This document shows positions 12,941 through 55,156 of a stretch of DNA of 64,000 bases, one piece after another. The stretch lies in NCBI GenBank assembly GCA_016721765.1, contig JADKHO010000002.1:927141-991140 (forward strand), read 5' to 3'. Both the position numbers and the translations under genes were made by a program. Under the pieces are notes generated by a model. That model saw only the letters and a list, made by a program, of their open reading frames with translations, did no database searches and was not told where the DNA came from. Position 1 is the stretch's first letter; each line of letters begins with the position of its first letter. The DNA comes from Bacteroidota bacterium (GTDB taxonomy: Bacteria; Bacteroidota; Bacteroidia; UBA4408).

Positions 12941-12980
12941 AGAAAAGCCTTGCAAGAGTGAATCTTACAAGGCTTTTTTC
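12941..12980 (+). terminator. Hairpin AGCCTTG(n15)CAAGGCT + T6 immediately left of the att repeat
   Basis: A 7-bp stem is followed by TTTTTT, and it abuts the attL copy. Confidence 0.4.
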
Positions 12981-24572: not shown

Positions 24573-25195
24573 TGGCAAGATATGTTTTTTTTAGTTTCGC
24601 TTATGACGATGTAAAGAACTTCAAAGTAAACGTTGTTCGGCACAGTTGGCTAATCAATAAAAATGAAGAAACTTTTATTGATGGTTCAATTTGGGAAAAG
24701 GATAAAACCAAAGGTTCAATAGCAATAATGAAGCTTATTGAGAATGGTTTAAACAAAACATCGGTAACGGCAATTCTAATTGGAGAAGAAACGGCAAATA
24801 GGCGTTGGGTTAATTATGAACTAATAAAAAGTTTTGACCGAGGAAACGGAATTTTAGGAGTTTATATTAATAGAATCAGAGGCAAACAACAAGCAATTTC
24901 AGCAAGAGGCCTTAATCCACTTGACCGTCTTGCATTTCAAATTTCAGAGGATGGAAGGAAAATTCGGTTTTATGAATTGATAAATCGCAAATGGGTCGTT
25001 TACTCTGACTTACCTGAAATAAATAATAAGAAGTCAAATACACTTTACTTTGAAGATAGCTTTTGGAAGGGTAATGATTTTGGAAAATCATTTCGCTTTT
25101 CTGAAATGTTCAATACTTTTTGTTGGATAAATGATGATGGACACAAAAACTTTTCATCTTGGGTTGAAGAAGCGGCAAATGAAGCAGGACGATAA
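24572..25195 (+). CDS. ThsB-like TIR domain protein (DUF1863)
   Basis: It has FFSFAYDDVKNFKVNVVRHSW...SVTAILIGEETANRRWVNYE...WVEEAANEAG. This is the closest in the window to the canonical ThsB pattern. Its start overlaps the previous gene's stop. Confidence 0.7.
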   Translation: MARYVFFSFAYDDVKNFKVNVVRHSWLINKNEETFIDGSIWEKDKTKGSIAIMKLIENGLNKTSVTAILIGEETANRRWVNYELIKSFDRGNGILGVYINRIRGKQQAISARGLNPLDRLAFQISEDGRKIRFYELINRKWVVYSDLPEINNKKSNTLYFEDSFWKGNDFGKSFRFSEMFNTFCWINDDGHKNFSSWVEEAANEAGR

Positions 25196-25212
25196 ACATA
25201 AAATATATTTTC

Positions 25213-25590
25213 ATGAGTAAATCAATTTTTATTAGTTGCGTTTTTGAAGACAGTCATAGAATTGAGTCAATAAAAAAATGGGCTATGAACAACCGACTTG
25301 GGGATGTAATAATTACCCATGAAACGGAAGATAAACGCCCACTTGGTAAAGATGCAATCAAGAAACATATTCAAAGCAAAATTGAAGGCGCTGCCATAAT
25401 ATTAGTATTGATTGGACAAGACACACATAATCATGAATGGATTGAAGCAGAAGTTGAGCTTGCAAACAGTTTTCATAAAGAAATTATTTGCGTTAGAGTT
25501 CCTCAAACCAAAGGTGCAGCTCCAATTTTGCTGGCAAATAAACGTTTAATTAGTTTTGACCCTGACGCTATTAAAAAGCTAATTTCATAG
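25213..25590 (+). CDS. Short TIR-like (DUF1863-like) protein
   Basis: It has an IFISCVFEDS start with an AIILVLIGQDTHNHEWIEAEVELA core. It is 125 aa. Confidence 0.5.
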   Translation: MSKSIFISCVFEDSHRIESIKKWAMNNRLGDVIITHETEDKRPLGKDAIKKHIQSKIEGAAIILVLIGQDTHNHEWIEAEVELANSFHKEIICVRVPQTKGAAPILLANKRLISFDPDAIKKLIS

Positions 25591-27415: not shown

Positions 27416-28565
27416 ACCATTGGGTAAATACATACAACTTGTTGTAGGTCGCAACAATGAGTTGGGAGATTTACCATTAATGGGCTTGAGTATTTCAAAA
27501 AAATTTATTCCTTCTATTGCGAATACAATAGGAACTGATATGTCAACATACAGAACCATTTATAAAAATCAGTTCGCTTATGGTCCTGTAACATCAAGAA
27601 ACGGAGATAAATTTACAATTGCTTTGTTTAATGATTATGACAAAGCGTTGATTTCACAAGCATATATTCCTTTTGAAGTAAAAGACAGCAACGAACTTGA
27701 ACCCGAATATTTGATGATGTGGTTTCGCAGACCTGAGTTTGACCGTTACGCAAGATTTAAAAGTCACGGCAGTGCAAGAGAAATTTTTGATTGGGAAGAA
27801 ATGTGTAATACACTTCTGCCAGTTCCCCACCCCGACAAACAACGAGAAATAGTAAAAGAATACAACACCATACAAAACCGCATAGCACTCAACCAGCAAC
27901 TGATACAAAAACTCGAAGAAACCGCACAAGCTATTTATAGGCAGTGGTTTGTGGAAGGTATTGATTTACAGAATTTGCCAGAGGGGTGGACAATTGGTGA
28001 TTTAAGTATGATTTCCAAAAAAATATTTAGCGGTGGTACTCCGTCAACTGAAGTTGATGAATATTGGAATGGTGATTATTACTGGTTTTCTTCTGGTGAG
28101 ACTGGCTATAAATATATTCTTAGTACAGAAAAAAAAATCACTAAGGAAGGTATAAAGAACTCTACCACAAAAAAAACACAAAGATTAAGTACTGTAATTG
28201 CAACTGCGGGTCAGGGTAAAACTAGAGGTCAATCTGCTCTAATTTTTAATGATGTTTATATTAACCAATCTGTTATCTCTGTAGAACCAATAAGTACTGA
28301 ATATTCATATTTCATTTTCCTGAACATTAATTCAAGATACGAGGAATTAAGAAATGATTCTGATGCTCAAAGTATCAGAGGTAGCATCAATTCAAATGAC
28401 ATTAAAGGGTTGTCAACGATAGTGCCACTAAATGACATTATGCTAAAGTTTCACAAGACCGTTTCTCCTTTTTTTGAAATAATTGAGAATAAAATGAAAC
28501 AAAACCAAATGCTAAAGGAACTGAAAGATTTGCTTCTTTCGAAATTAGCGACAATAGAAAATTAA
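27399..28565 (+). CDS. hsdS: Type I restriction-modification specificity subunit
   Basis: It has two target-recognition domains separated by a conserved central helical repeat. It overlaps hsdM by 17 nt. Confidence 0.8.
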   Translation: MKSHYKPLGKYIQLVVGRNNELGDLPLMGLSISKKFIPSIANTIGTDMSTYRTIYKNQFAYGPVTSRNGDKFTIALFNDYDKALISQAYIPFEVKDSNELEPEYLMMWFRRPEFDRYARFKSHGSAREIFDWEEMCNTLLPVPHPDKQREIVKEYNTIQNRIALNQQLIQKLEETAQAIYRQWFVEGIDLQNLPEGWTIGDLSMISKKIFSGGTPSTEVDEYWNGDYYWFSSGETGYKYILSTEKKITKEGIKNSTTKKTQRLSTVIATAGQGKTRGQSALIFNDVYINQSVISVEPISTEYSYFIFLNINSRYEELRNDSDAQSIRGSINSNDIKGLSTIVPLNDIMLKFHKTVSPFFEIIENKMKQNQMLKELKDLLLSKLATIEN

Positions 28566-28572
28566 AAAAAAT

Positions 28573-29754
28573 ATGAGATATAAATATCAGCTAATAATAT
28601 TAGGCAGTAAAGTTTCAATAATTGATGATGTGATAGAATTGTTTTCTAAAAAATTAGAAGATTTGAAATTGCCAGATAGTTCTGTTAAAATTATTAATTC
28701 AGGTAATTTTGAAGCTGAATACCTAGGTAATCAGCCGGCATTTGTATTTTATTTTGGTGATGTGGTTGGAAATTTTAAGGATTTGGATATTACTCAGAGG
28801 TTATTGAATGAAGGCACTATGATATTGCCTATTTATTTTAATAATGATTCCTTCTCAAAGGAAATACCATGCATTTTAGAAAACCAAAATGGTATTCAGT
28901 ACAAAAAAATTGAAGAAGACAGAATAGTAAATATTGCATTAGAATCTTTTGAACTATTAAACAATACAAGAAAAATATTTATTAGTTATAAAAGAAATGA
29001 ATCAACATCAGTTGCCATTCAATTATTTGAAGCTTTAGAAGCGCATAATTTTGATGTTTTTTTAGATACTCATTCAATAGGTAAAGCTGAAGCGTTTCAA
29101 GAAGAATTATGGCACAAAATGACGGATTGTGATGTAATTCTACTACTGAATACACCAAATTTTCTGAATAGTCATTGGTGTAAAGAAGAATTTGCAGAAG
29201 CTGGTGCTAAACAAATTGGTATTGTTCAATTGGTTTGGCCAAATCATAATGTAAAAATGGATGATACATCTCATATCAGTTTTCCAAAGCAATTAATTAA
29301 AGAAAATTTCATTGCCGATTTATTTGATGACAGGGATAAATCAAAATTAAAAGATGATATAGTTGAAGAGATAATCAAAGAGGTTGAATCAGTTAGAGCG
29401 AGGAATTTAGCCGCACGGCAAGATAATTTAATTACAGAATTTAGAAATATTGCTGATAGAATTGGAAAAAAAATCACTTTACAACCAGAAAGATTTTTGA
29501 CAGAAGATTTGTCAAACGGTGAAAGAAGAATATATATACCAACGATTGGTATACCACAGTCAACAAGTTGTCAATCTGCTGAAATAAGAAATGAATTATT
29601 AAACTATGGTAATATCAGCATTAGGTTAATTTATGATGATATACGGATAAGAGAAAAATGGATTAATCATCTAGATTGGTTAAATAAAAATTTAAATGTA
29701 GATATCAAGACATTAAAAAAACAAGAATTTGAATCATGGCTAAGCAAGAATTAA
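28573..29754 (+). CDS. TIR domain-containing protein (N-terminal unknown domain + canonical TIR + C-terminal extension)
   Basis: The central RKIFISYKRNESTSVAIQLFEALEAHNFDVFLD...DVILLLNTPNFLNSHWCKEE is a canonical TIR signature. It starts 8 nt after hsdS. Confidence 0.6.
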   Translation: MRYKYQLIILGSKVSIIDDVIELFSKKLEDLKLPDSSVKIINSGNFEAEYLGNQPAFVFYFGDVVGNFKDLDITQRLLNEGTMILPIYFNNDSFSKEIPCILENQNGIQYKKIEEDRIVNIALESFELLNNTRKIFISYKRNESTSVAIQLFEALEAHNFDVFLDTHSIGKAEAFQEELWHKMTDCDVILLLNTPNFLNSHWCKEEFAEAGAKQIGIVQLVWPNHNVKMDDTSHISFPKQLIKENFIADLFDDRDKSKLKDDIVEEIIKEVESVRARNLAARQDNLITEFRNIADRIGKKITLQPERFLTEDLSNGERRIYIPTIGIPQSTSCQSAEIRNELLNYGNISIRLIYDDIRIREKWINHLDWLNKNLNVDIKTLKKQEFESWLSKN

Positions 29755-30332
29755 AAAATATTTTTCTATCTGCAAGTATTCCTTTGCCGGACAGAGATCC
29801 AAAATATATAGAGACTGCTGATATTATTGCTATCCGAGATGCTGTTATAGCTCTAACAACAGTTGTGCTACCATATCATAGAATTATTTGGGGTGGTCAT
29901 CCATCAATTACTCCTTTAATTTATTATGTAATGGATAAATTGAAATTAAATGTACAAAATCATGTTACTCTTTATCAATCAGAGTTCTTTAAAGAAAAGT
30001 TTCATGAAGACAATAATAAATTTGAAAATGTAATACTTACTGAAAACCTAGGTGACATTCCTTCAAGTGTTAAAAGAATGCGTGAAATAATATTTTCTGA
30101 GAATAAATTTGTTGCTGCAGTTTTTATAGGTGGTATGGATGGAATTGAAGTTGAATTTAATATGTTTCGAGAATATCATCCGGATGCTATTTTATTGCCA
30201 ATTTCAAGTGCAGGAGCAGCTTCTAAAGTTGTTTATGAAAATCTTCTGCCTGCAGAATTTAAAAATGAAATGCTGGTTAAGAATTATGCTTATATGTCTT
30301 TATTTCAAAATTTGTTAATCGATAAAATTTAG
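29736..30332 (+). CDS. SLOG/LOG-like Rossmann-fold protein (candidate TIR-signal sensor)
   Basis: The protein is 198 aa with two Gly-rich loops (RIIWGGHPS and VFIGGMDGIE) like LOG/SLOG (ThsA C-terminal) domains. It overlaps the upstream TIR gene by 19 nt. Confidence 0.4.
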   Translation: MAKQELKNIFLSASIPLPDRDPKYIETADIIAIRDAVIALTTVVLPYHRIIWGGHPSITPLIYYVMDKLKLNVQNHVTLYQSEFFKEKFHEDNNKFENVILTENLGDIPSSVKRMREIIFSENKFVAAVFIGGMDGIEVEFNMFREYHPDAILLPISSAGAASKVVYENLLPAEFKNEMLVKNYAYMSLFQNLLIDKI

Positions 30333-30335
30333 TTT

Positions 30336-31031
30336 ATGGCAAGAAATGTTTTTGTTTCATACAAATATTCTGACTCAAAAGTTCAAGACTTAGAGCTTTT
30401 TGAGATAGTTAATTATTTTGGTTCTAATATGAGACGTAAAATCACTACTACTGCTCGGCACTATGTAGACAAAGTAGCTGAAAAGCTGGAAAAGGAAGAC
30501 CACATCTTTAAAGGAGAAGATGATAATGAAAGCATGGAGACACTTGCTGATTCAACCATTGGTTCAAAGTTAGGTGATAAGATATTTTACAGTAGCGTAA
30601 CAATAGTGTTAATCTCTAAAGGAATGAAAGAACCTTTCAAGGCAGATAAAGACCAATGGATTCCTTGGGAAATATCTTATTCATTAAAACAACAAGATAG
30701 GCAAGATCAAAAAAGCAAAACCAATGGAGTTATAGCAGTTGTGTTACCTGATGAACTAGGCAGTTATGACTACTATATTACAAGAGATGAAGAATGTAAT
30801 TGCCGGTCATTAAATACGCCTATTCTCTTTGAAATACTAAGAGAAAATATGTTCAATGTAAAAGTCCCTAACAGACGACTTTGCAATGGTAGCTATGTTT
30901 ACACAGGTGATGCTTCATATATCCCGTCAATTAAATGGGAGGATTTTATTATTAAACCTTCAACATACATTGATAAGGCAATAGAACTAAGAGACAGAAA
31001 GGAAGATTTTGAATTAAGAAAAAATTTGTAA
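30336..31031 (+). CDS. TIR-like (DUF1863-like N-terminus) protein with unknown C-terminal domain
   Basis: The N-terminus MARNVFVSYKYSDSK parallels the ThsB-like genes upstream. It is 231 aa and starts 4 nt after the SLOG-like gene. Confidence 0.45.
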   Translation: MARNVFVSYKYSDSKVQDLELFEIVNYFGSNMRRKITTTARHYVDKVAEKLEKEDHIFKGEDDNESMETLADSTIGSKLGDKIFYSSVTIVLISKGMKEPFKADKDQWIPWEISYSLKQQDRQDQKSKTNGVIAVVLPDELGSYDYYITRDEECNCRSLNTPILFEILRENMFNVKVPNRRLCNGSYVYTGDASYIPSIKWEDFIIKPSTYIDKAIELRDRKEDFELRKNL

Positions 31032-31041
31032 CAAAAATAAT

Positions 31042-32754
31042 ATGGCGGAATTACATGTAAGTAGAAAAACGATCAGCAAATTACTAAGTGAAATGCAAGG
31101 AAGAAGGTTTATTATTCCAGATTTTCAACGCCCTTATAGATGGGACATAGAAAAATGTGAAACTCTTTGGAACGATATTATTAATTTTTTTGAAAATGAT
31201 CCAGAAGACACGGAATATTTTTTAGGAACCATTGTTACTGCTGAAAATGAAGAAAAAAATCCAGAAGTAATTGATGGACAGCAACGACTTACTTCGCTTT
31301 TTTTAATGTTAAGAGCTTTTTACAAGAAGTTGGAATCAATGAAAGATGATGATGATGTATTAGGTCTTAAAATGCAAGTAGGTCCATGTCTTTGGGATGT
31401 ACATTCAATATCTAAAAAAGTAAGTGATTTCAGTAAAATACATATATATTCTGATGTTGCAACCGATAGCGATAATCAGGTATTTCATAACATACTAGTT
31501 AAAGGTGAAGTAGAGAAGGCTCATGAAGATAATTATTCAATTAATTATCAATTTTTCAAAAGCTCTTGTGATGAATACGCAAAATCTAAACCGACAAAAT
31601 GGTATAGCTTATGTGTGGCAATACTAAATAGATGCATTATATTACCAATTGAATGTGATAAGCAGGAAACTGCCCTTACAATTTTTTCAACATTAAATGA
31701 TAGAGGGCTTCCTTTGGCAGACTCTGATATTTTTAAAGCTCAAATTTATAAGAACTATAAGTCTTCGGCTGAAAGAAAGGAATTTACTGAGCAATGGAAG
31801 CAGCTTACTGAAGTTTGCACTGAAGCTAATATTTCAATAGATGATGTCTTTAGGTATTATACTCATATTTTAAGAGCTAAAGCGAATGATAAAACAAAAG
31901 AGGTGGGCTTAAGAAAGTTTTATGCTCAAGATTTCTATTCCAGATTAAAAGAGGAGAACTGTCTTTCAGAAATTATTAAACTCTCTAATTTTTGGTGGTA
32001 TATTAATAATTATGAAAATCCTGCTGATTACCTTGAAGAAAATGAACCCTACCAAATCAGTACTTCAGCATTCAGATATATTCACGTTCTTATGAACTAC
32101 CCAAATGAATATTGGAAATATGTTACCAGTGTTTATTACTATACAAACAGAGTAAATGAAAATTTTAAAGATGATTTTGAGATATTCCTGAAACAACTTA
32201 TTGCATTTTTATTTGCAAAATTTATTGAACAGCCTACTGTAAACGCAATTAAAGATGATATTTATAGCGCTTGCATTTCAATTAGTTATGGAAACGGCTT
32301 AGGTCTTTACTACAATTTTTCTCAAGCCTATTTAGCTAATCGATATGAAACATTTTCTAGTTCTAAAATCAGCAAAGGCTTATTGCTACTTGACGCTTAT
32401 TTACATCCTGATCAAAAAGACTACATAAAAAAAGAAGTTGAAATTGAACATATATTTCCTAGGAAATGGCAATCTACAAATTACTTTGGATGGAAAGAAG
32501 AAGATGCAAGGGATTACTTAGACAAATTCGGAAATAAAATTGTTTTTGAGAAGAAACTAAATATTCAGGCCGGTAATGGTTATTTTAAGCGGAAGCAAGA
32601 TAAATATAGGTCTTCGGAAATTTCAGTTGTTAGAGATTTGGCAAACTATCAAAATAATGATTGGACAAAAGATGATATTGAAAAGCGTGAAGCAATTTTA
32701 AAAGATAGATTGATTGATTTTTTCAATAGTTTTATAAATGTTGGCTCTAAATAA
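31042..32754 (+). CDS. GmrSD-family type IV (modification-dependent) restriction enzyme, DUF262 + DUF1524
   Basis: The N-terminal DUF262/ParB-like motif is FIIPDFQRPYRWD...IDGQQRLTS. The C-terminal DUF1524 His-Me finger is EIEHIFPRKW. Confidence 0.8.
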   Translation: MAELHVSRKTISKLLSEMQGRRFIIPDFQRPYRWDIEKCETLWNDIINFFENDPEDTEYFLGTIVTAENEEKNPEVIDGQQRLTSLFLMLRAFYKKLESMKDDDDVLGLKMQVGPCLWDVHSISKKVSDFSKIHIYSDVATDSDNQVFHNILVKGEVEKAHEDNYSINYQFFKSSCDEYAKSKPTKWYSLCVAILNRCIILPIECDKQETALTIFSTLNDRGLPLADSDIFKAQIYKNYKSSAERKEFTEQWKQLTEVCTEANISIDDVFRYYTHILRAKANDKTKEVGLRKFYAQDFYSRLKEENCLSEIIKLSNFWWYINNYENPADYLEENEPYQISTSAFRYIHVLMNYPNEYWKYVTSVYYYTNRVNENFKDDFEIFLKQLIAFLFAKFIEQPTVNAIKDDIYSACISISYGNGLGLYYNFSQAYLANRYETFSSSKISKGLLLLDAYLHPDQKDYIKKEVEIEHIFPRKWQSTNYFGWKEEDARDYLDKFGNKIVFEKKLNIQAGNGYFKRKQDKYRSSEISVVRDLANYQNNDWTKDDIEKREAILKDRLIDFFNSFINVGSK

Positions 32755-35700
32755 ATGAAATTCACGGAAGAAAAATTAGAGAGAGCATTTATCGAATTGT
32801 TAGGGCAAGAAGGATTTCCCTACCGATTAGGCAATACTTTAACTCGTAAGTCTGAAGAAGTATTGATAGAAGAAGATTTACAAAACTTTCTTTTAACACA
32901 ATACGCTGGGCAAGGCATTACAGTCAATGAAATCAAATCTATTATTCTTCAACTCAAATCGCTTTCCGCTTCCGACCTTTATGAAAGCAACAAAACATTT
33001 TTAAAAATGCTTTCAGACGGTTTTATTCTCAAACGAGAAGACCGCAGCCAAAAAGATATTTACATTCAGCTTATCAATTACGCAGGACTAAACAAACACC
33101 GCCAACCTGATGCAGCCCAGTTAATTTCTATTGCTGCCGAACCCGAAGAAGTTTATCCACCAGACAATAACATTTACAAGTTTGTAAACCAATTAGAAAT
33201 TATTGGTTCAGAAAAACGTATTCCTGATGGTATTGTTTATATCAACGGTTTGCCTTTGGTGGTATTTGAATTCAAATCTGCCATTCGTGAAGAAGCCACT
33301 ATTTTCGATGCTTTCAAGCAATTAACGGTTCGTTACCGCAGAGATATTCCTGAACTGTTTAAATACAATGCTTTTTGTGTTATTAGCGATGGCGTAAATA
33401 ACAAGTCAGGTTCATTCTTTGCCCCGTATGAGTTTTTCTATGGCTGGCGCAGAGTGGCAGGTTTGGCAAAAGATGTGGACGGCATTGACAGTATGTTTAC
33501 ACTCATACAGGGAATGTTTCACAAAAACCGATTACGAGATATTATTCGCAACTTCATTTACATTCCTGATAGCTCAAAGAAAAATGAAAAAATTGTTTGT
33601 CGCTATCCGCAATACTATGCAGCAAGAGCATTATATGACAATATCAAAAAAGCCCAAAAGCCCGAAGGAAACGGAAAAGGTGGAACTTATTTTGGTGCCA
33701 CAGGATGCGGAAAAAGTTTTACTATGCTTTATCTCACAAGATTGTTGATGAAGAGCGAATACTTTGAAAGTCCGACTATTGTTTTAATAACTGACCGTAC
33801 CGATTTAGATGACCAACTTTCGGGACAATTTACCAATGCTAAAAATTTCATAGGCGACAATACTGTTGTAAGTGTGGAGAGCAGGGCCAATTTGAGAGAA
33901 TTAATTCAAGGCAGACAAAGCGGAGGCGTTTTCTTAACCACGATTCACAAGTTTACGGAGGACACACAACTTCTTACCGATAGACCAAACGTGATTTGTA
34001 TTTCTGACGAAGCTCACAGAAGCCAAGTAAACCTTGACCAAAAAGTAAAAGTTACCGAGAAAGGCGTTACCAAAACTTATGGCTTCGCCAAATACTTGCA
34101 CGATTCATTGCCCAATGCCACATTTGTTGGTTTCACAGGAACTCCCATAGATGCAACGTTGGATGTATTTGGGAAAGTGGTGGATGCTTACACAATGACC
34201 GAATCGGTGAAAGATGAAATCACTGTGCGGATTGTTTATGAAGGCAGAGCAGCAAAAGTGTTGTTGAACAATTCCAAACTCAAAGAGATTGAAGATTATT
34301 ACGCCAAGTGTGCTGAAATAGGCAGCAACGAAAATCAGATTGAACAGAGCAAAAAGGAAATGGCACACATGTATGCCATCATTGGCGACCCTGACCGTTT
34401 AAAAGCAGTTGCCGAAGACTTTGTAAACCATTATGAAAACAGAGTTTCGGAAGGTTCAACCGTGAAAGGCAAAGCAATGTTTGTGTGTAGCACTCGTGAA
34501 ATTGCTTATGAGTTGTATAAAAACATTATTGCCCTAAAACCCGAATGGAATGAAATACTTGCAGCAGAAGAAGGAGCAGAACTCACCGACAAAGACAAAC
34601 GAGAACTAAAACCCATTGAACGAATAAAGTTGATTGCCACCCAAGGAAAGGACGATGAAAAAGATATGTATGATTTGTTAGGCACAAAAGATTATCGCAA
34701 AGAACTTGACAGACAATTCAAAAATGAAAAATCGAATTTCAAAATCGCAATAGTAGTTGATATGTGGCTCACAGGTTTTGATGTGCCGTTCTTGGATAGC
34801 ATTTACATTGACAAACCTATTCAACGACATAATTTAATTCAAACTATTTCAAGAGTAAACCGCAAGTTTGAAGGAAAGAACAAAGGTTTGGTTGTGGATT
34901 ATATCGGCATCAAAACACAAATGAATCTGGCCTTGAAGCAATACAGCGAAGGCGACAAAGATAATTTTGAAGACATTGCTGAATCTATAATCATTGTAAG
35001 AAATCATTTAGACCTTTTGGCTAAACTGTTTCACACCTTTGACAATTCAAAATATTTTAAAGGCACTACTATTCAGCAATTAAATACGTTGAATTTGGCT
35101 GCTGAATATGTGCAACAAAGCAAAGACTTTGAAACCCGTTTTATGGGCTTGGTAAAGCGACTAAAAGCCGCTTATGATATTTGTGCAGGAAGCGAACAAT
35201 TAACTCAGTTAGAAAGAGATTACACACATTTTTATTTGGCAGTTCGTTCTATTGTTTTCAAACTCACCAAAGGTAATGCACCCGACACAGCACAGATGAA
35301 CGCTAAAGTTCGGGAAATGATAAAAGAAGCGTTGCAAAGTGAAGGTGTAGAAGAAATTTTCAAGCTCGGTGATGAAGCAGAAACCGAACAAGACATATTT
35401 GATGAAGATTATTTAGCGAAAATTGATAAAATCAAATTGCCGAATACTAAAATCAAATTGCTTCAACAGTTATTGGCTAAAGTGATTGCAGAAATTAAAA
35501 AAGTAAATCGTGTAAAAGGAATTGACTTTACTAAAAAGATGCAAGCTCTTGTTGAACGCTACAACAACCGTGATGTAAATGATATTTTGAGAAGTGAAGT
35601 GTATGAGGAAATGGCAAACGCTTTGACAGACTTGATTTGGGAAGTTCACAAAGAATTTGCAGCAGGAGACGCTTTAGGAATTGACTTTGAAGAAAAAGCA

Positions 35701-35967
35701 TTTTACGACATTCTTAAAGAACTGTGTGTAAAATACGACTTCAAGTATCCTGATGACAAAATGATTGACCTTGCAAAAGCTGTGAAAGACTTGGTTGATG
35801 GACAAGCCAAATTTCCTGATTGGAATAAACGTGATGATATTAAATCAGCTTTGAAAGTTGGTTTGATTTTATTATTGGATGAGTTTGGTTATCCACCGGT
35901 GGAAAGGGATGAAGTGTATGTAGAGATTTTTGAACAGGCGGAGAATTTTAAGAAAAATAAAATTTAA
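32755..35967 (+). CDS. hsdR: Type I restriction enzyme R subunit
   Basis: It has an N-terminal HsdR_N, an SF2 helicase motor (GTGKS-like Walker A in ATGCGKSF and DEAH-box ISDEAHRSQ) and a C-terminal helical domain. It is 1070 aa and its start abuts the gmrSD stop. Confidence 0.9.
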   Translation: MKFTEEKLERAFIELLGQEGFPYRLGNTLTRKSEEVLIEEDLQNFLLTQYAGQGITVNEIKSIILQLKSLSASDLYESNKTFLKMLSDGFILKREDRSQKDIYIQLINYAGLNKHRQPDAAQLISIAAEPEEVYPPDNNIYKFVNQLEIIGSEKRIPDGIVYINGLPLVVFEFKSAIREEATIFDAFKQLTVRYRRDIPELFKYNAFCVISDGVNNKSGSFFAPYEFFYGWRRVAGLAKDVDGIDSMFTLIQGMFHKNRLRDIIRNFIYIPDSSKKNEKIVCRYPQYYAARALYDNIKKAQKPEGNGKGGTYFGATGCGKSFTMLYLTRLLMKSEYFESPTIVLITDRTDLDDQLSGQFTNAKNFIGDNTVVSVESRANLRELIQGRQSGGVFLTTIHKFTEDTQLLTDRPNVICISDEAHRSQVNLDQKVKVTEKGVTKTYGFAKYLHDSLPNATFVGFTGTPIDATLDVFGKVVDAYTMTESVKDEITVRIVYEGRAAKVLLNNSKLKEIEDYYAKCAEIGSNENQIEQSKKEMAHMYAIIGDPDRLKAVAEDFVNHYENRVSEGSTVKGKAMFVCSTREIAYELYKNIIALKPEWNEILAAEEGAELTDKDKRELKPIERIKLIATQGKDDEKDMYDLLGTKDYRKELDRQFKNEKSNFKIAIVVDMWLTGFDVPFLDSIYIDKPIQRHNLIQTISRVNRKFEGKNKGLVVDYIGIKTQMNLALKQYSEGDKDNFEDIAESIIIVRNHLDLLAKLFHTFDNSKYFKGTTIQQLNTLNLAAEYVQQSKDFETRFMGLVKRLKAAYDICAGSEQLTQLERDYTHFYLAVRSIVFKLTKGNAPDTAQMNAKVREMIKEALQSEGVEEIFKLGDEAETEQDIFDEDYLAKIDKIKLPNTKIKLLQQLLAKVIAEIKKVNRVKGIDFTKKMQALVERYNNRDVNDILRSEVYEEMANALTDLIWEVHKEFAAGDALGIDFEEKAFYDILKELCVKYDFKYPDDKMIDLAKAVKDLVDGQAKFPDWNKRDDIKSALKVGLILLLDEFGYPPVERDEVYVEIFEQAENFKKNKI

Positions 35968-36331
35968 ATTAAAAATAGACATTATATGAAAGGCAACATT
36001 CAAGGAATTGAAAGTGAAAATTTGGGCAATTAAGAGACTTATGAAAAAACACATCTCTGGTATTCAAGCATTGATAACTTTAAAATTGGCAATAACATTT
36101 GCGAATTTTCATTCAATTGGGATATTTATGTTTATCGCATAAATGCAACTACAAATAATGATTTTAATTACAAGGGTACTATTCAAATTCAGGGATATGA
36201 AGCGCATGACATAAGTTTTTGTCATTATAAAAACGGCAATCGGAATTTATTAATTGGCAATTATATTGAGGATGATACTGACTACAGATTTGTTATTGAA
36301 GTGAGTTGACGTTTTCTAAGAATAAAATTAA

Positions 36332-37588
36332 ATGGAAGAAAAAACTGAGCCCAAGAACGGATTTAGGATTTTAAGCGCCACAATGGCTATTGCTATTGCA
36401 TTTATTGCATTGGTAGCATTTCTTTTTATTACTTTTTTTTTCTTCCATAGCGAAATAATCCCATACAAATTTTTCGAACAAGCAACAGGTAATTATGCTC
36501 AATTAATTGCCGGAGTAATTGGAACATTGCTCTCATTTGCAGGCATCATTTTAATATACGCAACCTTTAAAGAACAGCAAGACTCAAATAAGGCGCAAGA
36601 TGATAAACAAAATCGGCAAACTAAACTTTTTAATCAACAGCAATTTGAAACAACTTTTTTTAATTTAATAGAAAACCATTTTAGAATAATTAAAAGTTTT
36701 GATGAAGAATTTTTTGATTTAAATAGAAATAGTTCCAAAGACAAGAGTGGCTATAATCAGCTAAATGATTGCTTCAGAAGGTTCAGAATAAAATTCTACA
36801 AAGTCGCAGATTATCAAATTTCTTCGCAATATTCAAATTACCAAACAATCAACTTTTATCCACTAGCTGATGAAAATATTGATAAAGCAATTATTATAAA
36901 ATCTGCTTCAAACATTCAGTTGATACTTGACTATATTTTGAGCTCAAAACAAATCGATAAAGATGCAAAAGAGCTTTATGCTAGAATATTATTTACTTCT
37001 TTAAATGAGAGTGAGGTATATTTTTACATTGCAAGAAGTTTTTGGGAAACCGGAAAATCAAATTTTTTCTTTAAAAACTTTAACGACTATTTCTTAGAGC
37101 AAGAAATGATGCGGAGTGTAAAGTTTAGCCTGAACCAATCACTTGGTTTTTACACATCCGAAAGAAATGGTCCTTCAAGGGAATTTGTCCTCACTGCTAA
37201 CGATGTTAAGTCAGATTTAAAACTTATCGAAATGGGGGAAAATCAAGAAATAAATTCTATTGAACATTCAATCTACGGAGAAAATGTTTCATTCGAATTT
37301 GAAGAAATAGTTTTACTTTTCCCTGAGCGCAAAAAACTTAAAATAGATTTTGATAAGTGTAATGGAGGAGGAATGTTTTATATAAAGTTACCTATTGCAT
37401 CAATTGCAAATGAACTTTATCCTAATCGCTTTGTACCTAACAGTGTTGAAGAAAAAAAAACATTTTTTGATGAGCATCAATTAGCTATAAGTTATTCTAT
37501 AAAAACAGGCACTGAATCCACAAAAATATGGTATAAAGTAAAAATGCAATATGAAGCTTTGAATCAAATAAGGATGGAAATTGAATAA
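36332..37588 (+). CDS. Hypothetical membrane protein (2 N-terminal TM helices + ~330 aa cytoplasmic domain); candidate defence/Abi effector
   Basis: Hydrophobic segments are at aa ~18-40 and 57-79. It is AT-rich and lies inside the defence island. Confidence 0.4.
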   Translation: MEEKTEPKNGFRILSATMAIAIAFIALVAFLFITFFFFHSEIIPYKFFEQATGNYAQLIAGVIGTLLSFAGIILIYATFKEQQDSNKAQDDKQNRQTKLFNQQQFETTFFNLIENHFRIIKSFDEEFFDLNRNSSKDKSGYNQLNDCFRRFRIKFYKVADYQISSQYSNYQTINFYPLADENIDKAIIIKSASNIQLILDYILSSKQIDKDAKELYARILFTSLNESEVYFYIARSFWETGKSNFFFKNFNDYFLEQEMMRSVKFSLNQSLGFYTSERNGPSREFVLTANDVKSDLKLIEMGENQEINSIEHSIYGENVSFEFEEIVLLFPERKKLKIDFDKCNGGGMFYIKLPIASIANELYPNRFVPNSVEEKKTFFDEHQLAISYSIKTGTESTKIWYKVKMQYEALNQIRMEIE

Positions 37589-37731
37589 GAGTTACTTCTT
37601 GTTTTGCTCAAGCGGTAATTACATCGCAGTTAGACCAAGATTTTTGAGCTCCTGAGTCCTATAATTTCTTAAATAAATGTGAATAACTCGTTATAAATAG
37701 ACGTTTCGAATTCATTAATTTTGCCTTCATA

Positions 37732-38727
37732 ATGACTATAAATCAAACCATTATGAAGAGAACAAACGAAATTATTAAATCATTTGATTACTCAGTAAAT
37801 CAAACTGAAGAATTGCTGTCAAGTTTAAGTGGAGAGCTCAGGATGTTGCCTCTAATTACAACCACTATTGCAAAAGGACAAAAAATATTTAGATGCCGTC
37901 CGATTCGCAAAGTTTCAGATATTCCACATTCTGAAAGCGAAATTTCTTATAGACCTGATGAAAAAGAAATTAAAACAATAGGCAGATGCAACTGGTTGGA
38001 GTCTTCAAAATTCTATGGTTCCATTAAAAGTGGAAATGAAGATGAAAACAATAAGGAGAAAAAGTATATACCTGGGGACGTGACAGCAATTGCAGAAATC
38101 AGTGATCTTGCACGAAATGATAAAGACGGTTCCGAAGTTTATGCAGTTGGAGTCTGGGAGGCTATAGAAGATTTTAAATTGTCTGTCTTGAAACCACCAT
38201 CTACAATTTCTTCCGAAAGTTTAATTGTTACAGAAATTCGTAATGCTTATAATGAGACATTTAAGAATGATAATCTTTCAGATGATCTCATAGAATTTCT
38301 TGAATTATATGGAAAACACATGGTACAAAAAGTAGGACCTGATGAAAATGAAAAGTATATGATATCATCATTAATCTCAGAGACACTTTTAGACTTTATT
38401 CCAGGGATGATATATACCTCGGTACAGTCGGATCACAAGGGCTTAAATGTTGTTATGAATCCACATGATTTTGTTAAATATTTTGCATTAAATCATGTAG
38501 TTATTGGTGAGTATTTCAAATTTAAAAACCATGCAACTTTTGGAGCAGTGTCGGTTTGTGAAGACACAAACGTCATTCCGTTTCAATATAAATTACCATC
38601 TGAAAAGGATCGCTTGATTTATTCTGAAATTATCGCGCTTTTTATCAGAGAAGGTATCTCTCGCGATTATATGGCAGATGTATTGACTAAACAATTGGCA
38701 AGTCAATCTCAAAAGGTTAAAGTATGA
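37732..38727 (+). CDS. RES-like (Arg-Glu-Ser NAD+-glycohydrolase toxin fold) domain protein - tentative
   Basis: GRCNW...KFYGS, AIAEIS and GMIYTSVQSDHKGLNVVMNP resemble the RES domain R / E / S blocks. Confidence 0.35.
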   Translation: MTINQTIMKRTNEIIKSFDYSVNQTEELLSSLSGELRMLPLITTTIAKGQKIFRCRPIRKVSDIPHSESEISYRPDEKEIKTIGRCNWLESSKFYGSIKSGNEDENNKEKKYIPGDVTAIAEISDLARNDKDGSEVYAVGVWEAIEDFKLSVLKPPSTISSESLIVTEIRNAYNETFKNDNLSDDLIEFLELYGKHMVQKVGPDENEKYMISSLISETLLDFIPGMIYTSVQSDHKGLNVVMNPHDFVKYFALNHVVIGEYFKFKNHATFGAVSVCEDTNVIPFQYKLPSEKDRLIYSEIIALFIREGISRDYMADVLTKQLASQSQKVKV

Positions 38728-39194
38728 ATTTCAGCATAGAATCTATTGTTGGAATATTAGCATTGTTAATAGCAGCTGCAGCTTTTATTCTTCAAATAAG
38801 AGATTCAAGTAAGAAAAAACCACCTGCACGTTTTAAAGGAGGCATTGGTAAGGGCAGCGTAGATATAGATATTAATACAGGAAATTTTGTGAGTTTTATT
38901 TTTAATAAAGAAGCAGGAGAGATTATTTATTTAGATATTTTTTTTGAAAATGATCAGAATTATGGGATAGATGAAAATAATAGATTCCATTTTTCTTTTT
39001 ATGAAAAACCAGAGCCGCAATGGGGTGGTTACAGTTTTTACATAGAAGTAAACGAAAATGATGATTTTTTTTTCGACAACAGACCATCTTCAAGAAGGTT
39101 GGCTGGACATTTTAAAATTATTGGAACAATTGGACCGCAACAAGGTTGGGTTACAGCATTTTTGAAGCCTGTAAAAAGTGAATTTATTAACTAA
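38724..39194 (+). CDS. Small protein with N-terminal TM helix, overlapping partner of the RES-like gene
   Basis: It has a 4-nt start/stop overlap with the upstream gene. There is a hydrophobic N-terminus (IVGILALLIAAAAFIL). Confidence 0.35.
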   Translation: MNFSIESIVGILALLIAAAAFILQIRDSSKKKPPARFKGGIGKGSVDIDINTGNFVSFIFNKEAGEIIYLDIFFENDQNYGIDENNRFHFSFYEKPEPQWGGYSFYIEVNENDDFFFDNRPSSRRLAGHFKIIGTIGPQQGWVTAFLKPVKSEFIN

Positions 39195-39217
39195 TTGTCT
39201 TCTATTAAACCTATAGT

Positions 39218-40006
39218 ATGCTTAGACTTGACGAAATAAAACTCCCAGATGGAAGTGGAGAACAAATGCATTTCCATTCTCCTGATGTGGAATACGTTGA
39301 CCCCATTGAGCATGTTGCCAATGCAATATTTGAATTGAGTGCATCTCTTACTACAAAACTTCTTTTGAACTCTGGGTTACCGTATTCACCTGAAATACTC
39401 AAAGGTGAGGCATTAAAGTTCGCATCGAGATCATTAAAAAAGGAAATGGATTTGTTTTTTGCGGCAACAATACCTGAAAATCTTCTTTCGATATTAACTG
39501 CAACCAAAAAGAACAATCAAGTCAAATTACTCAAAGGATTATCTATTACCCAGGAACAACTTTACGCATTTATTTTTAGAGCGAAAACTGAATTTGACTT
39601 TTTATTCAGCACTTATACTGCTGAACACCTACCCAATGGACTTGACCCAAATGAACTACCGGTATTTATAGAGGTAAAAGGTAACGAGGTTAATAAAATT
39701 GGGCAAACTAATCTTTCTGATGGACAACTAAAACAAGTGATGGCACATAGAAATTTTGTCTCTGCAATGTTTATAGATAAGGGCAGCACATGGCACTGTT
39801 TCTTTTTTACATTTAACAGTGTAAGAGGAAAAGAGGCATGGAAGGATGGCCAAGCCCACTATCATTATATTTCTGATAAATTTGGAATTCCCAGAGCAAA
39901 GGTTGTTGAGGAAATAAAGAGCGGAAGATATCACTTGGGAAACCTTCCTCATATTAATCTAAATGATGATCGTTACGACAAAAATAAAGGGAAAGGAACT
40001 TACTAA
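39218..40006 (+). CDS. Hypothetical protein (262 aa), no recognisable domain
   Basis: It is an intact ORF inside the defence cluster with an RBS-like spacing to the upstream gene. Confidence 0.35.
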   Translation: MLRLDEIKLPDGSGEQMHFHSPDVEYVDPIEHVANAIFELSASLTTKLLLNSGLPYSPEILKGEALKFASRSLKKEMDLFFAATIPENLLSILTATKKNNQVKLLKGLSITQEQLYAFIFRAKTEFDFLFSTYTAEHLPNGLDPNELPVFIEVKGNEVNKIGQTNLSDGQLKQVMAHRNFVSAMFIDKGSTWHCFFFTFNSVRGKEAWKDGQAHYHYISDKFGIPRAKVVEEIKSGRYHLGNLPHINLNDDRYDKNKGKGTY

Positions 40007-40463
40007 CAAATACGTAAAAATAATGCTAAAACAGGTTGTAACCGCTATAAGTAAAAGCAATAGAGATTCCTTAATAAAGGGAGTTGAGTATGCAATGTTA
40101 TTAGAAATTGAAACAAACGGGAGAATAGTTATTGAATTATATCCGCTGGTTGTGCCCGGTAAGGTGATTGTATAGATAAGCCTACATGACTTTTTATTTT
40201 AGTGGAAGGAAGTTACGGGCTAATTCTATTCAAAAAAGAAAAAAGCGGATGTAGAAGACTTTTCTGTGTTTCATGAAGAGACTGCAACCGAAAAGGAAGA
40301 TATATCAAATGAAGATATTTCACCATCAATAACGTTTTCGAGTAAAATGAACATTGACGATGATTCTGCGCCATTTTAACCATTACTAATTTAAGGCAAG
40401 TGGTGATCAAAATCCAGTTTTTTTAAATTGGTAGATTTAAGAATTGAATTAATCTTAGGTAAG

Positions 40464-41843
40464 ATGACCAATAAGGAAGTACTCAAAAACTGTATATTTT
40501 GTAATAACTCATTGGATAATTCTGATGAACATATAATTCCTGATTGTTTAAATGGTCGGCTGCACTCAAAGTACTTAATATGCCAAAAATGCAATTCCGA
40601 TAAATTTGGCAAGCAACTTGAACCAGCAATAAAAAAACTATTCAACACAATCCTAATAATATTAGGGTTTGAAAATGCGAAATCAGTCTATTCAGAAGAC
40701 CCTGATGGAAAGATATTTTTATTTAGTAAAGGTGGAAATATTTCGCAAGTGAAACCTGAGATTTTGGTAAATAAAAGGGGGGGGAAAACATATCTCAGCA
40801 TTAATGGTGATAGCAAGAATGCCTTAAAATATTTTGAAAAACAGGCTAATGAACTTTTGAAGAAGGGCCATAGACCTCTACATAGCTGTGTATTGAAAAC
40901 TGATTCAACATCACTTCCAATTAAAGTCGAGGAAAAATTTCAAATCTCTCCAGAGATTATTTTGGAATTAAATAAAATCGCAATCGAATTCTATGCTTAT
41001 TCTGGTTTAGATATTTCTAAGATTAAGGAACTATCGGACAGGGTTAATAAGATGGATAGGACTTTAAAAAATGTTGTATTCTGCAATGCTTCAAATGAAA
41101 TTAGAACCTGTCAATCAGATGAAGTATCTCATATTATAGTTATTCGAACACATACAAATGGATCGCTATACTGTTACATAGAGCTCTTCAATATTGTTTG
41201 TGCTTACATTAATTTTTATGATGGTCATGAAAGCAAAACGATGTATTCTTATTATCAAGATGCTTTAACAGGTGAAAGACTTACAGAAGATATTGTCCTT
41301 GACTTCGATAAGGAGCCTGATAATGTAGAAAATTTAAATTTTAACTCTCAGATTAATGCTTTATCTGATCGGCTAAGGTCAAGGGAATATAATTCGATGC
41401 TTGCATCAATAGCTAAGGATTTAACTGAATTTATTGATAAAGAAGTTTTGGAAGAGAGGATTAAAAAGGAGGATAGAGATAAAATTTTATGCGATAGCAT
41501 AATTGGTGAAGCAGCACGATTGTCAGTTTATGAATTTCCTTATATGATTGAAGATTACGAGGATGAAAAAAATGATGAGTTAAATCACATACATTCCAAT
41601 TTACAAGAAAATCAATATGAAGATTTTTGTAATAAGTATAACAAATTAATTGGGCGTAGGATTGATATACCAGACGAAGGAATTTATCTAATTGATAGTT
41701 TTCTGAAACAACCTTTTTTACAACGAAACGGTATAAGTTTGGTTAAAGTATTTTGTGTATTGACACATGAGGATTTTAAACATAAACGGTATATTCCATA
41801 CAGGGATCTTTTCGTAGCAATATCTATAAGACATGACACTTGA
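40464..41843 (+). CDS. HNH nuclease-domain protein with long C-terminal helical region
   Basis: The N-terminal CIFCNN...DEHIIPDCLNGRL...CQKCNSDKFG is the HNH/His-Me finger pattern. The start is placed at the ATG at 40464 (MTNKEV) rather than the upstream alternative start at 40428. Confidence 0.5.
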   Translation: MTNKEVLKNCIFCNNSLDNSDEHIIPDCLNGRLHSKYLICQKCNSDKFGKQLEPAIKKLFNTILIILGFENAKSVYSEDPDGKIFLFSKGGNISQVKPEILVNKRGGKTYLSINGDSKNALKYFEKQANELLKKGHRPLHSCVLKTDSTSLPIKVEEKFQISPEIILELNKIAIEFYAYSGLDISKIKELSDRVNKMDRTLKNVVFCNASNEIRTCQSDEVSHIIVIRTHTNGSLYCYIELFNIVCAYINFYDGHESKTMYSYYQDALTGERLTEDIVLDFDKEPDNVENLNFNSQINALSDRLRSREYNSMLASIAKDLTEFIDKEVLEERIKKEDRDKILCDSIIGEAARLSVYEFPYMIEDYEDEKNDELNHIHSNLQENQYEDFCNKYNKLIGRRIDIPDEGIYLIDSFLKQPFLQRNGISLVKVFCVLTHEDFKHKRYIPYRDLFVAISIRHDT

Positions 41844-42199
41844 AGAAGAATTAATATTTTCAATTAACATTTTACAAAAACTTAGGGATCATTTGAAACA
41901 GAACTCAAATAATAAGGAGTTAATCGAAAGAACATTGCAAAAATTAAGGGATAAAAAATTGGATTTAATTCTTACTGAGTTTATCTCAGGTGAGGAAGAA
42001 ATTATTTAAACAGTACTAAATCCTCCTGCGCCCAAGTGTTCCTTTTTGAGGGTGTTTTTTTAAAAAACTACAACCTCCGAAAGCCTTGATGCTAAATGAA
42101 ACCCGTTGGTTTTAGTCGGACAGCGATGTAATTACCGCTCAAGCAAAAAAACAATGTTATTATATTTTGTTTTTCATAATAACATTGTATATTTGCATC

Positions 42200-42907
42200 A
42201 TGAAAGCTCAAAAGAAGATTACAATAAAACCATTTCTAAATCAGAACCTGATACCGGAATGCACTGATGGTAGCGGAAAAAACTTTTATCCCTTATACAT
42301 ACAAATTACCTACGACCGCAAAAACACACAAATTCGCAGTAAGTATGGTATGTATTACGAAACGCTGAACGATCCGGGATTATTTAATCTAATTGCCTTT
42401 GAGTCGAACATCCTTCAAAAAATCATACAATTTGAGACAAAAAATAGCGATTGCGAATACGATTTAAGAGGGCTTAAAAACAAATACACTACTTACAGCA
42501 CATCTATTCACTATGCGGTAAGCGAATACCTCAAAGAAAAGCTTAAATGGGCAATCAAGCGAACTAACAATGAGCTAATGCATGTTTTAAAATTTGAGGG
42601 CTTTAAATCGGGTTTTGATAATCTGTACAAGGCTTCACAATTGTTATTTCCCAACTTGAAAGAAAAAATTACTCCTGAGTTTAAAAAAGAAATTGAAGCC
42701 TTTCATTTACTGAATAAGCTCCACCCCATTGGCAGCGGGGAATATTCCTTCGCAGCCTTAATCGATTGGAAAGACAATAGTTTTAAATCAAAATTTGAAG
42801 CGAGTTTGAATAAGGAATTGAAACAAAACAAAAAACAAGTGTCCGAAACGCTTGCTATTATTGATAAAATCGTTGCTGAAAATTTGAAAAGTATAGAGGG
42901 CGCTTAA
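42200..42907 (+). CDS. Integrase N-terminal (Arm DNA-binding + SAM-like) domain-only protein; truncated integrase or recombination directionality/regulatory factor
   Basis: ITIKPFLNQ...YPLYIQITYDRKNTQIRSKYGM matches the Bacteroidota integrase arm-binding domain. It is 235 aa with no catalytic R-H-R-Y region. Confidence 0.45.
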   Translation: MKAQKKITIKPFLNQNLIPECTDGSGKNFYPLYIQITYDRKNTQIRSKYGMYYETLNDPGLFNLIAFESNILQKIIQFETKNSDCEYDLRGLKNKYTTYSTSIHYAVSEYLKEKLKWAIKRTNNELMHVLKFEGFKSGFDNLYKASQLLFPNLKEKITPEFKKEIEAFHLLNKLHPIGSGEYSFAALIDWKDNSFKSKFEASLNKELKQNKKQVSETLAIIDKIVAENLKSIEGA

Positions 42908-42984: not shown

Positions 42985-43365
42985 ATGACTCCTGAATTAA
43001 ATAAAATTTTCAAAGCTCTTGAAAAGGAGATAACTGCAATAGTTACCAAAAAGGTAACAGCGCAGCTGAGGGAATCTTATGTGGAGGATGTTAAAGCAAT
43101 AGTAAAGGATTGCTTGAAAAACAATGAATTTATAAATGAAGCAGGTTCAGGTTTCATTACCATTGAAGCACTTAGTAAAAAATATGGGGTAAGCAGAAAA
43201 ACAGTAACTGATAAATGCAAGCAATTCAATGAAGGTTTCTTAAAAATTGAGCGCAAGTGGGTGAATGGACACCATACAGTAAACGAAAAACAATATGTGG
43301 AGGCTTGTGATCATTCCTCAAGAAAAGGGAAACCGAAATTTATCTCCAAGCAAAAAGCAGCTTAA
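42985..43365 (+). CDS. Small helix-turn-helix DNA-binding protein (excisionase-like), adjacent to attR
   Basis: ITIEALSKKYGVSRKTVTDKCK is an HTH. The protein is 126 aa and is the last gene before the tRNA/att site. Confidence 0.4.
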   Translation: MTPELNKIFKALEKEITAIVTKKVTAQLRESYVEDVKAIVKDCLKNNEFINEAGSGFITIEALSKKYGVSRKTVTDKCKQFNEGFLKIERKWVNGHHTVNEKQYVEACDHSSRKGKPKFISKQKAA

Positions 43366-43543: not shown

Positions 43544-43563
43544 TTTTCGAGCGGTCCGGACGG
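43544..43563. repeat. attR: second copy of 20-bp direct repeat TTTTCGAGCGGTCCGGACGG overlapping the tRNA-Asp 3' end
   Basis: It is identical to 12976..12995. Confidence 0.75.
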
Positions 43564-43625
43564 GACTCGAACCCGCGACCCCATGCGTGACAGGCATGTA
43601 TTCTAACCAGCTGAACTACCGAACC
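43552..43625 (-). tRNA. tRNA-Asp (anticodon GTC)
   Basis: The reverse complement folds as a cloverleaf. The acceptor stem is GGTTCGG/CCGGACC (one G-U). The anticodon stem is CATGC/GCATG with loop CTGTCAC, giving GTC. The T-arm is GCGGG-TTCGAGT-CCCGT. The length is 74 nt and no CCA is encoded. A downstream terminator hairpin is GCCCTTAAGTA..TACTTAAGGGC. Confidence 0.85.
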
Positions 43626-44628: not shown

Positions 44629-44639
44629 GGGGTTAGTTT

Positions 44640-45175
44640 TTAAGTTATTGGGTTATTGAGTTATTGAGTTATTGGGTTGTTATGTCATCCTGAGCGTAGT
44701 CGAAGGAGGGTTATTGGGTTGTTATGTCATCCTGAGCGTAGTCGAAGGAGAGTTATTTAGTTATTGAGTTCTTATGTCATCCTGAGCGTAGTCGAAGAAG
44801 GGTTATTGGATTATTGAGATTCTTGATTCAATTTATGCAGTTGTTGTTTATAAATATCCCCCGCTGGCGAGGGCAGGGGGTGGTATGGAACGCTGATTTA
44901 TTATGATAATTATGATTTTTATATGATTTTCTTGTATCGAGTTTCTTGGTTTCAAGGTTTCAAGGTTTCAAGGTTATAATTTATCTCGAAAATAGTAGTT
45001 GTTAGTTTCAACCTCAATTAATCAACCAATCCAAACACTAGCAAATCATCCAATCCCTATGTCACCTAATCGGCTAATCAGCTAATCAGCTAATCGGCTA
45101 ATCGGCTAATCAAAACAATCAGCTAATCAACAATAGTACAAAAATAAAAACGGCTAATCATTATTAAAAAAATAA
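44640..45175. repeat. Tandem-repeat-rich intergenic region with three families: 3× ~46-bp unit containing GTCATCCTGAGCGTAGTCGAAGGAG, 4× GGTTTCAA(G), and ≥8× (C/A)GGCTAATC 9-mers
   Basis: The units occur at 44684, 44726 and 44776 with TTATTGRGTT sub-repeats. GGTTTCAAGGTTTCAAGGTTTCAAGG is at ~44948-44975. CGGCTAATCAGCTAATCAGCTAATCGGCTAATCGGCTAATC is at ~45070-45130. Confidence 0.8.
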
Positions 45176-55038: not shown

Positions 55039-55156
55039 TAATTGATTTAGCTTCGGCGAATCAATGCTCTAAAAATGCTACTCATTTTCGATAATGAGTA
55101 GCATTTTTATTTTTATAATGTTTACATTTGGATTACAGATAATTTTAACTCCCTAA

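Follow-up and report, generated by a model that had tools for sequence, protein, structure and literature searches.

A candidate non-autonomous cargo transposon with terminal inverted repeats and an 8-bp direct repeat in a Bacteroidota defence island

Mobile insertion cassettes (mic elements) are defined by two bracketing inverted repeats with no transposase gene nearby, and a target duplication is usually observed (PMC3913671). They include MIC231 of Bacillus cereus and the mic elements that carry qnrD or qnrS2; tIS and TIMEs are other non-autonomous cargo transposons. The subject of this article is a block of 4523 bp from a Bacteroidota bacterium (lineage UBA4408) that can be compared with them. 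It lies at positions 37614-42136 of a 64,000-nucleotide stretch of contig JADKHO010000002.1 (assembly GCA_016721765.1), and the whole of that stretch is called the window below. Like the mic elements, the block holds passenger genes within two imperfect inverted repeats of about 24-25 bp, contains no internal transposase, and is flanked by a putative target-site duplication. Unlike them, it has no known parent insertion sequence (IS) with the same termini, it is found in a Bacteroidota host, and its cargo is toxin- or defence-like (RES, HNH). A further difference is the conserved subterminal sequence of about 105 nt at its right end, which is joined to much larger gene arrays elsewhere.

Site-specific recombination offers another comparison. 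Bxb1 uses a 48-bp attP and a 38-bp attB attachment (att) site with an 8-bp common core, in which the asymmetric central dinucleotide alone fixes polarity (PMC3642061). The edges of the block resemble attL and attR of the Bxb1 type in having an 8-bp core, a non-palindromic centre in the same orientation, partly symmetric half-sites and an attP dyad of about 58 bp. Unlike in large serine integrase systems, no serine recombinase gene is present in or beside the block, and the related right ends do not lie at one attB.

Duplications of 8 bp and termini that start with GG are traits of the IS families IS6/IS26, ISL3, IS256 and IS1595. The block shares with these families the 8-bp duplication, terminal repeats in the range of 15-40 bp and GG tips, but it has no transposase by which a family could be assigned. 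Finally, the block resembles integrative defence islands next to tRNA genes, since it lies in an island of about 20 kb near tRNA-Asp and the cargo of relatives differs at the same edge. In contrast to such islands, the unit of exchange here has terminal repeats of its own and a duplication, and not tRNA-derived repeats.

The block was probably inserted as one unit and would be an ordinary kind of mobile element, of a family not previously described. The favoured explanation, with a probability of about 45%, is that it is a non-autonomous transposon of the mobile insertion cassette type, bounded by terminal inverted repeats and by a target duplicated over 8 bp. It is favoured because inverted termini abut an 8-bp repeat, no transposase is encoded between them, and one of the ends is shared at other targets.

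Terminal repeats and the conserved right end

The edges of the block are made up of the following features.

37606-37613: left copy of the direct repeat GCTCAAGC, perfect over 8 bp; target-site duplication or common att core
37614-37638, + strand: left terminal inverted repeat GGTAATTACATCGCAGTTAGACCAA, 25 nt, complementary to the right terminus at 21 of 25 positions
37614-42136, + strand: inserted block, 4523 bp, six open reading frames (ORFs), all on the + strand
42031-42136, + strand: conserved right end, about 105 nt, which includes the 25-nt terminus at 42112-42136
42112-42136: right terminal inverted repeat TTAGTCGGACAGCGATGTAATTACC, 25 nt, outermost part of the conserved right end
42137-42144: right copy of the direct repeat GCTCAAGC, on the same strand as the left copy, 8 of 8 positions identical

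An earlier note on this DNA had described imperfect inverted repeats of about 32 bp. These are real. The left copy, at 37604-37635 as claimed, matches the reverse complement of 42115-42146 at 27 of 32 positions; the right copy had been placed one base off, at 42114-42145. The perfect 16-nt core that had been reported is present within an uninterrupted match of 17 nt (AGCGGTAATTACATCGC). With up to three mismatches allowed, the core occurs in the window only at 37612-37627 (+) and 42123-42138 (-).

Ungapped extension lengthens the repeat to 43 nt (37596-37638 against 42112-42154), of which 35 positions are complementary (81%). This is the top-scoring non-overlapping distant inverted repeat in the window. 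Its score of 46 was attained in none of 200 first-order Markov shuffled windows, in which the maximum was 36.4 +/- 2.4, and a Gumbel estimate gives p ~0.003 at the level of the whole window. The outermost similarity (TTCTTGTTTT against AAAAAAACAA) is a run of T opposite a run of A and is given no weight. Both arms are intergenic: the left one begins 8 nt past the stop of the gene at 36332-37588, and the right one finishes 46 nt ahead of the ATG at 42200.

The 32-nt repeat is a composite of two bases, the 8-mer GCTCAAGC and 22 nt of the terminus. Two of its five mismatches (CA against TG) form the non-palindromic centre of a direct repeat, and the core at both junctions reads GCT-CA-AGC, with the central CA in the same orientation. 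GCTCAAGC abuts the outer side of both 25-nt termini (GGTAATTACATCGC...). For arms paired at random, a direct match of 8/8 next to them has a probability of about 1.5e-5. If the 8-mer is instead counted with the inverted repeat, its two mismatches at the centre must still be an exact complementary swap (about 1 in 9 for the pair). A target-site duplication had been proposed as a check, and its probable counterpart, GCTCAAGC, is found directly outside the 25-nt termini. It had been expected just outside the 32-nt repeats and sits instead within them.

The right end is also present in other genomes. It matches L061 (ENA ERZ27258489 k141_1164432) at 17557-17661, and also L062, with 72.6% identity over 106 nt (E 1.8e-15), and is intergenic there; a weaker match is found in L060 at 8548-8624 (nhmmer E 2.5e-4). 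The terminal 25 nt are the best-conserved part, being 88% identical in L061 and L062 and 80% in L060. Homology stops at the same base in all three, at the tip ...TAATTACC, that is ...TAAT(T/A)ACC, and identity past the tip falls to about 25%. The flanks that follow are mutually unrelated: GCTCAAGC in the window, ACCTTTTC in L061 and AATGAAAG in L060. Judged from these alignments, homology that breaks off sharply at three unrelated flanks is what a mobile element would show at its tip when inserted at different targets.

Upstream of its right end, L060 carries homologues of three cargo genes, those of 331 aa (73% identical), 262 aa (73%) and 70 aa (82%), interspersed with genes that include Schlafen-like and SIR2 genes. 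Since the right terminus is shared with larger arrays of accessory genes in other Bacteroidota, the block is probably a short derivative of a wider family of elements.

The array of same-strand genes in L061 is punctuated by small minus-strand ORFs of 40-54 aa (12600-12960, 15482-15646 and 17620-17700) with the peptide pattern ..TIEEIE(K/R)KL..VISENL... They share the 19-mer GTTTCCTTTCGATTTCTTC, with one mismatch in the copy at 15.6 kb, and one copy directly adjoins the tip of the right end. A degenerate second sequence resembling the right end is found in L061 at 12881-12904.

Further copies of the core, whose search had been proposed, were sought by exact scans of three collections. The 16-nt core was used for IMG/VR, and a 20-nt pattern built on it (19 bases specified) for 185,579 species genomes (one genome per species) and the JGI metagenomes. 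No true further copy was found in the three collections: the only hits have unrelated flanks, lie mostly within genes, and are about as numerous as expected by chance. Relaxed motif scans of IMG/VR returned nothing relevant. When the right end and the complete block were compared by BLAST with plasmid and phage collections, the only relevant match was a homologue of the 262-aa protein on two Mucilaginibacter plasmids, with no right end nearby.

Most of the exact hits are inside genes that encode the peptide SGNYIAV. The 17-mer AGCGGTAATTACATCGC occurs in unrelated genomes (hits L052-L059 and L008-L051) because it codes for this peptide, which appears, from the flanking peptides, to belong to FG-GAP-like repeats and to C-terminal domains of the type IX secretion system (T9SS). 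Exact-motif scans thus mostly catch coding convergence.

The earlier note had named a common terminator-like element, scattered through the genome, as the case that would count against a cassette boundary. Such a dispersed motif was rejected on the evidence of the window, which has two copies in 64 kb, and of the three collections. Folding of the arms is not significant against shuffles (z-scores from -1.26 to +0.52), neither arm is listed in a terminator scan, and the exact scans gave only the unrelated hits described above. Insertion into a terminator hairpin was also considered and discarded: the reconstructed empty site (...TTCTTGTTTTGCTCAAGCAAAAAAACAATG...) folds no better than shuffles. 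Within the window only two tRNAs reach the Rfam gathering score; the best Rfam match at 41900-42300 has E 0.17, far under its gathering score.

Cargo genes and the proposed mechanism

Six ORFs lie between the termini.

37732-38727, + strand: RES-like gene of NAD-targeting toxin type, 331 aa, identified by conserved residues and Foldseek
38724-39194, + strand: 156-aa ORF with a single N-terminal hydrophobic helix, no family match
39218-40006, + strand: 262-aa ORF with a homologue in L060 (73% identical) and on Mucilaginibacter plasmids
39963-40175, + strand: 70-aa ORF, overlapping the 262-aa ORF at its end; part of it has an 82%-identical counterpart in L060
40428-41843, + strand: 471-aa protein with an N-terminal HNH_5 nuclease motif (PF14279, E 6.7e-8)
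41833-42009, + strand: 58-aa ORF, no family match

The RES label that the earlier note had given to the first gene is borne out. The 331-aa family has the invariant RES-type residues GRCN..FYGS, E and S. The AlphaFold model of the protein (pLDDT 82.5) matches the RES-domain toxin NatT (8qnq_C) in Foldseek with E 4e-4 and a probability of 0.98; Pfam gave nothing at E<0.01. The annotation of the source metagenome-assembled genome starts this gene at the ATG at 37753, which gives 324 aa. Its homologues in other loci are single copies in same-strand arrays of small genes of unknown function. The HNH label of the 471-aa protein is confirmed by the HNH_5 domain; a sequence search of the PDB returned no match for it. 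The single hydrophobic helix of the 156-aa ORF lends loose support to its label as a transmembrane (TM) protein.

The remaining four ORFs matched nothing in Pfam, NCBIfam, PHROGs or PADLOC, and none of the six matched a transposase or recombinase in these collections. A cargo of RES-like and HNH genes is in keeping with the defence island around the block.

A homologue of the 262-aa gene closes a same-strand array of small hypothetical genes on a Mucilaginibacter plasmid (L080, NZ_CP155082.1, 4404-5177). The array includes a Fic gene, and the right-end element was not found nearby.

In the favoured model, the block was inserted between the gene of a 418-aa membrane protein and the promoter of a 235-aa gene. 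The direct repeat GCTCAAGC would have arisen by duplication of the target at a staggered cut. As no transposase is recognisable in the block, the enzyme would act in trans: a transposase encoded elsewhere in the genome would bind both termini, excise them or make copies, and link them to another target. Such an element may be mobile in the present-day genome. The claim that the block is a discrete acquired cassette, with transposon-like terminal repeats or recombination sites, is supported, and it is sharpened by the direct repeat and the conserved element end.

Several points weigh against the transposon. The block is the only complete copy, and neither an empty site nor a second insertion with its own duplication was found. 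No autonomous IS with the same termini was found in the window or in the exact-core scans of the three collections. The left end (of the GGTAATTA type) and a duplication were not found in L060 or in the examined part of L061; to date the window alone has shown this terminus. In L060 it would fall beyond the start of the contig, and the elements in L060 and L061, if complete, are longer than 8.6 kb and 17.6 kb. A candidate left end in L061 (15625-15644, 18 of 20 positions) was rejected, as it starts a 54-aa minus-strand gene and its flank does not match. Three of the six cargo ORFs, with no detectable relatives of known function, could hide an unrecognised transposase. Lastly, GCTCAAGC is palindromic at 6 of its 8 positions, which also allows the direct repeat to be taken for a recombination core common to both sites.

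Flanking genes and the defence island

The block is bordered by the following features.

36332-37588, + strand: left flanking gene, 418 aa, two N-terminal TM helices, phrog_8999, outside the insert
42154-42199, + strand: promoter region of the 235-aa gene, with the conserved palindrome TGTTATTAT-N12-ATAATAACA and GTATATTTGC
42200-42907, + strand: 235-aa gene, right flank, outside the insert
42985-43365, + strand: 126-aa gene with a weak helix-turn-helix match, right flank, paired with the 235-aa gene
43551-43625, - strand: tRNA-Asp, beyond the pair

The stop of the left gene sits 17 nt before the left copy of GCTCAAGC. On the other side, 42154-42199 is the target-side flank, which is kept in all relatives regardless of the cargo upstream. 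In these relatives the 235-aa/126-aa pair has 70-93% amino acid identity and the upstream cargo is entirely different. Homology among them begins at 42154 (at 42141 in L001), and the right arm is therefore exactly at the edge of the variable region. The pair and its palindromic promoter form a fixed edge of variable defence cargo in several Bacteroidota (L001-L007 and L076).

The ORF beside the right arm had been labelled an integrase arm. This was a mislabel, and a truncated integrase at this place was rejected: the 235-aa protein is a complete member of a small Bacteroidota family of full-length proteins of about 235 aa, and it has no integrase domain match. It matched nothing in Pfam, NCBIfam, PHROG or PADLOC, and its confident AlphaFold model (pLDDT 89.9) has no fold match in the PDB. 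In L076 its homologue is followed by an 82-aa gene and then by a 556-aa large serine recombinase (Resolvase+Recombinase), at the edge of the island.

The defence island spans 24-43.5 kb (about 20 kb). It holds, in order, three ThsB-like TIR genes, hsdM, hsdS, TIR, SLOG, ThsB-TIR, GmrSD and hsdR; after hsdR come the gene of the 418-aa membrane protein, the bracketed block, the 235-aa and 126-aa pair, and tRNA-Asp. The left edge consists of three tandem genes (163, 207 and 125 aa; 24081-25590), each with a ThsB-like TIR as in Thoeris, and no ThsA-like gene was noticed beside them. The type I restriction-modification (R-M) operon at 25853-35967 is split, with four genes between hsdM/hsdS and hsdR: TIR_2 (28573), SLOG cluster 3 (29736), ThsB_TIR (30336) and GmrSD (31042).

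Part of the island (32755-37588) can be aligned with a JGI metagenome contig (L064, 455-4955). HsdR is 96.7% identical in amino acids and the next gene, a full-length 420-aa homologue of the 418-aa protein, 54%. At the level of sequence, this contrast indicates module-by-module mosaicism of the island. The island in L064 ends at tRNA-Gln with AbiEi/AbiEii.

Two genes of the window encode proteins that are 100% identical to database entries from a metagenome-assembled Bacteroidetes genome (locus tags IPP32_12325 and IPP32_12330). Other features of the window lie outside the island. A tyrosine integrase gene (13235-14608, 457 aa, Phage_int_SAM_5 and Phage_integrase) is found beside genes of T9SS substrates, 23 kb to the left of the cassette, and is the only recombinase gene among the scanned ORFs of the window. 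Between the DUF58 and thioredoxin genes, 44635-44815 contains three copies of a 50-66-nt unit with GTCATCCTGAGCGTAGTCGAAGGA and runs of the 8-mer AGTTATTG, which looks like a short dispersed or tandem repeat family. The strongest self-complementary match in the window is a 40-nt palindrome at 55070-55109 (95% self-complementary). The 3' half of tRNA-Asp has no second copy in the window, and an att repeat derived from the tRNA was rejected for this reason.

Competing explanations and significance

The main rival, less probable than the transposon, is site-specific integration of a cassette, by either a large serine recombinase or a tyrosine integrase, with the two sites as its attL and attR. 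GCTCAAGC would then be the common core, its asymmetric central CA would set the polarity, and the inverted termini of 25 nt would serve as half-sites P and P'. On recombination the block would leave as a circle with a near-perfect palindromic attP of 58 bp, whose junction would read ...GATGTAATTACC[0-8 nt]GGTAATTACATC... Inverted flanks with a direct core are indeed the look of attL and attR when attP and attB are partly symmetric. The ends of the block, when joined, form a 58-bp dyad, the P-type half-sites match at 21 of 25 positions, and in L001 homology to the window takes up again at AAGC, the right-hand half of the 8-mer. In addition, the 235-aa homologue of L076 adjoins its 556-aa Resolvase+Recombinase protein at the island edge (with the small gene described above between them), and the window has its tyrosine integrase gene. 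However, that integrase is 23 kb distant, and no Resolvase or Recombinase domain is found in the block or in the other scanned ORFs of the window. The three right ends abut GCTCAAGC, ACCTTTTC and AATGAAAG, which have no mutual similarity and differ in their "central dinucleotide", unlike a site-specific attB. The dyad symmetry of the reconstructed attB is itself a run of T opposite a run of A, that is, low complexity only.

An improbable alternative is that the repeats are relics with no function in mobility, either sites of a dimeric regulator or leftovers of an old gene or duplication at the junctions of a mosaic island. The island is clearly mosaic, as the comparison of HsdR and its neighbour with L064 shows. 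Both intergenic arms lie upstream of + strand genes, and each holds the perfect palindrome GTAATTAC; the arms are, however, oppositely oriented relative to their downstream genes, and a regulator site would leave the 8-bp direct repeat and the sharp end of homology in three genomes unexplained. The four copies of the terminus, read as GNYIAVR, differ mostly at the third positions of that frame, a hint that they may once have been coding. Against this, the open frames are of 27-47 codons and have no start codon, and an intact homologue is found in none of the loci retrieved. Arms as coding remnants were set aside on these grounds; a peptide resemblance to the HNH protein is weak (E 0.23) and fails on DNA, where the similarity of the termini to the HNH gene is no better than in shuffles. 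Very improbable is a dispersed repeat specific to the species and similar to REP or MITE elements, with two copies that bracket the block by accident. The copy count comes from 64 kb of a genome that has at least one contig of 1.13 Mb, and another short repeat family is found nearby at 44635-44815. Yet the window has two copies, with no true one in the 185,579 species genomes, the JGI metagenomes or IMG/VR; neither arm is a significant hairpin, and the flanking direct repeat would be unexplained. Least probable of all is the suggestion of the earlier note that the block can invert, with the inverted repeats as the sites of a DNA invertase. Inverted repeats do bracket a multi-gene block, in a defence island with a type I R-M system. 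But the asymmetric centre of the 8-mer points the same way at both ends, the six ORFs share one strand, and the neighbourhood has no invertase gene. Partial or silent copies of genes are also absent, as is any promoter arrangement directed outward. The sites are functionally in direct orientation under either the transposon or the att model, and recombination would thus excise the block and not invert it.

The transposon may also have a wider setting. It is suggested, tentatively and at less than even odds, that the 105-nt right end marks a family of cargo-carrying mobile elements in Bacteroidota, which would carry genes for toxins and defence (RES, SIR2, Schlafen-like, HNH) into defence islands and arrays of accessory genes. 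Its members would range from cassettes of about 4.5 kb with no transposase to elements of more than 17 kb, and they would be moved by a transposase or recombinase, possibly the product of one of the cargo ORFs that have no assigned function.

The ways in which defence islands acquire and exchange their genes are understood only in part. A cassette that has terminal repeats and a target duplication of its own, and toxin-like genes but no transposase, would be a concrete vehicle for this exchange in Bacteroidota, and its conserved right end is a search handle for further copies and for the mobilising enzyme. If it is a single isolated insertion, it would be just one more non-autonomous transposon.

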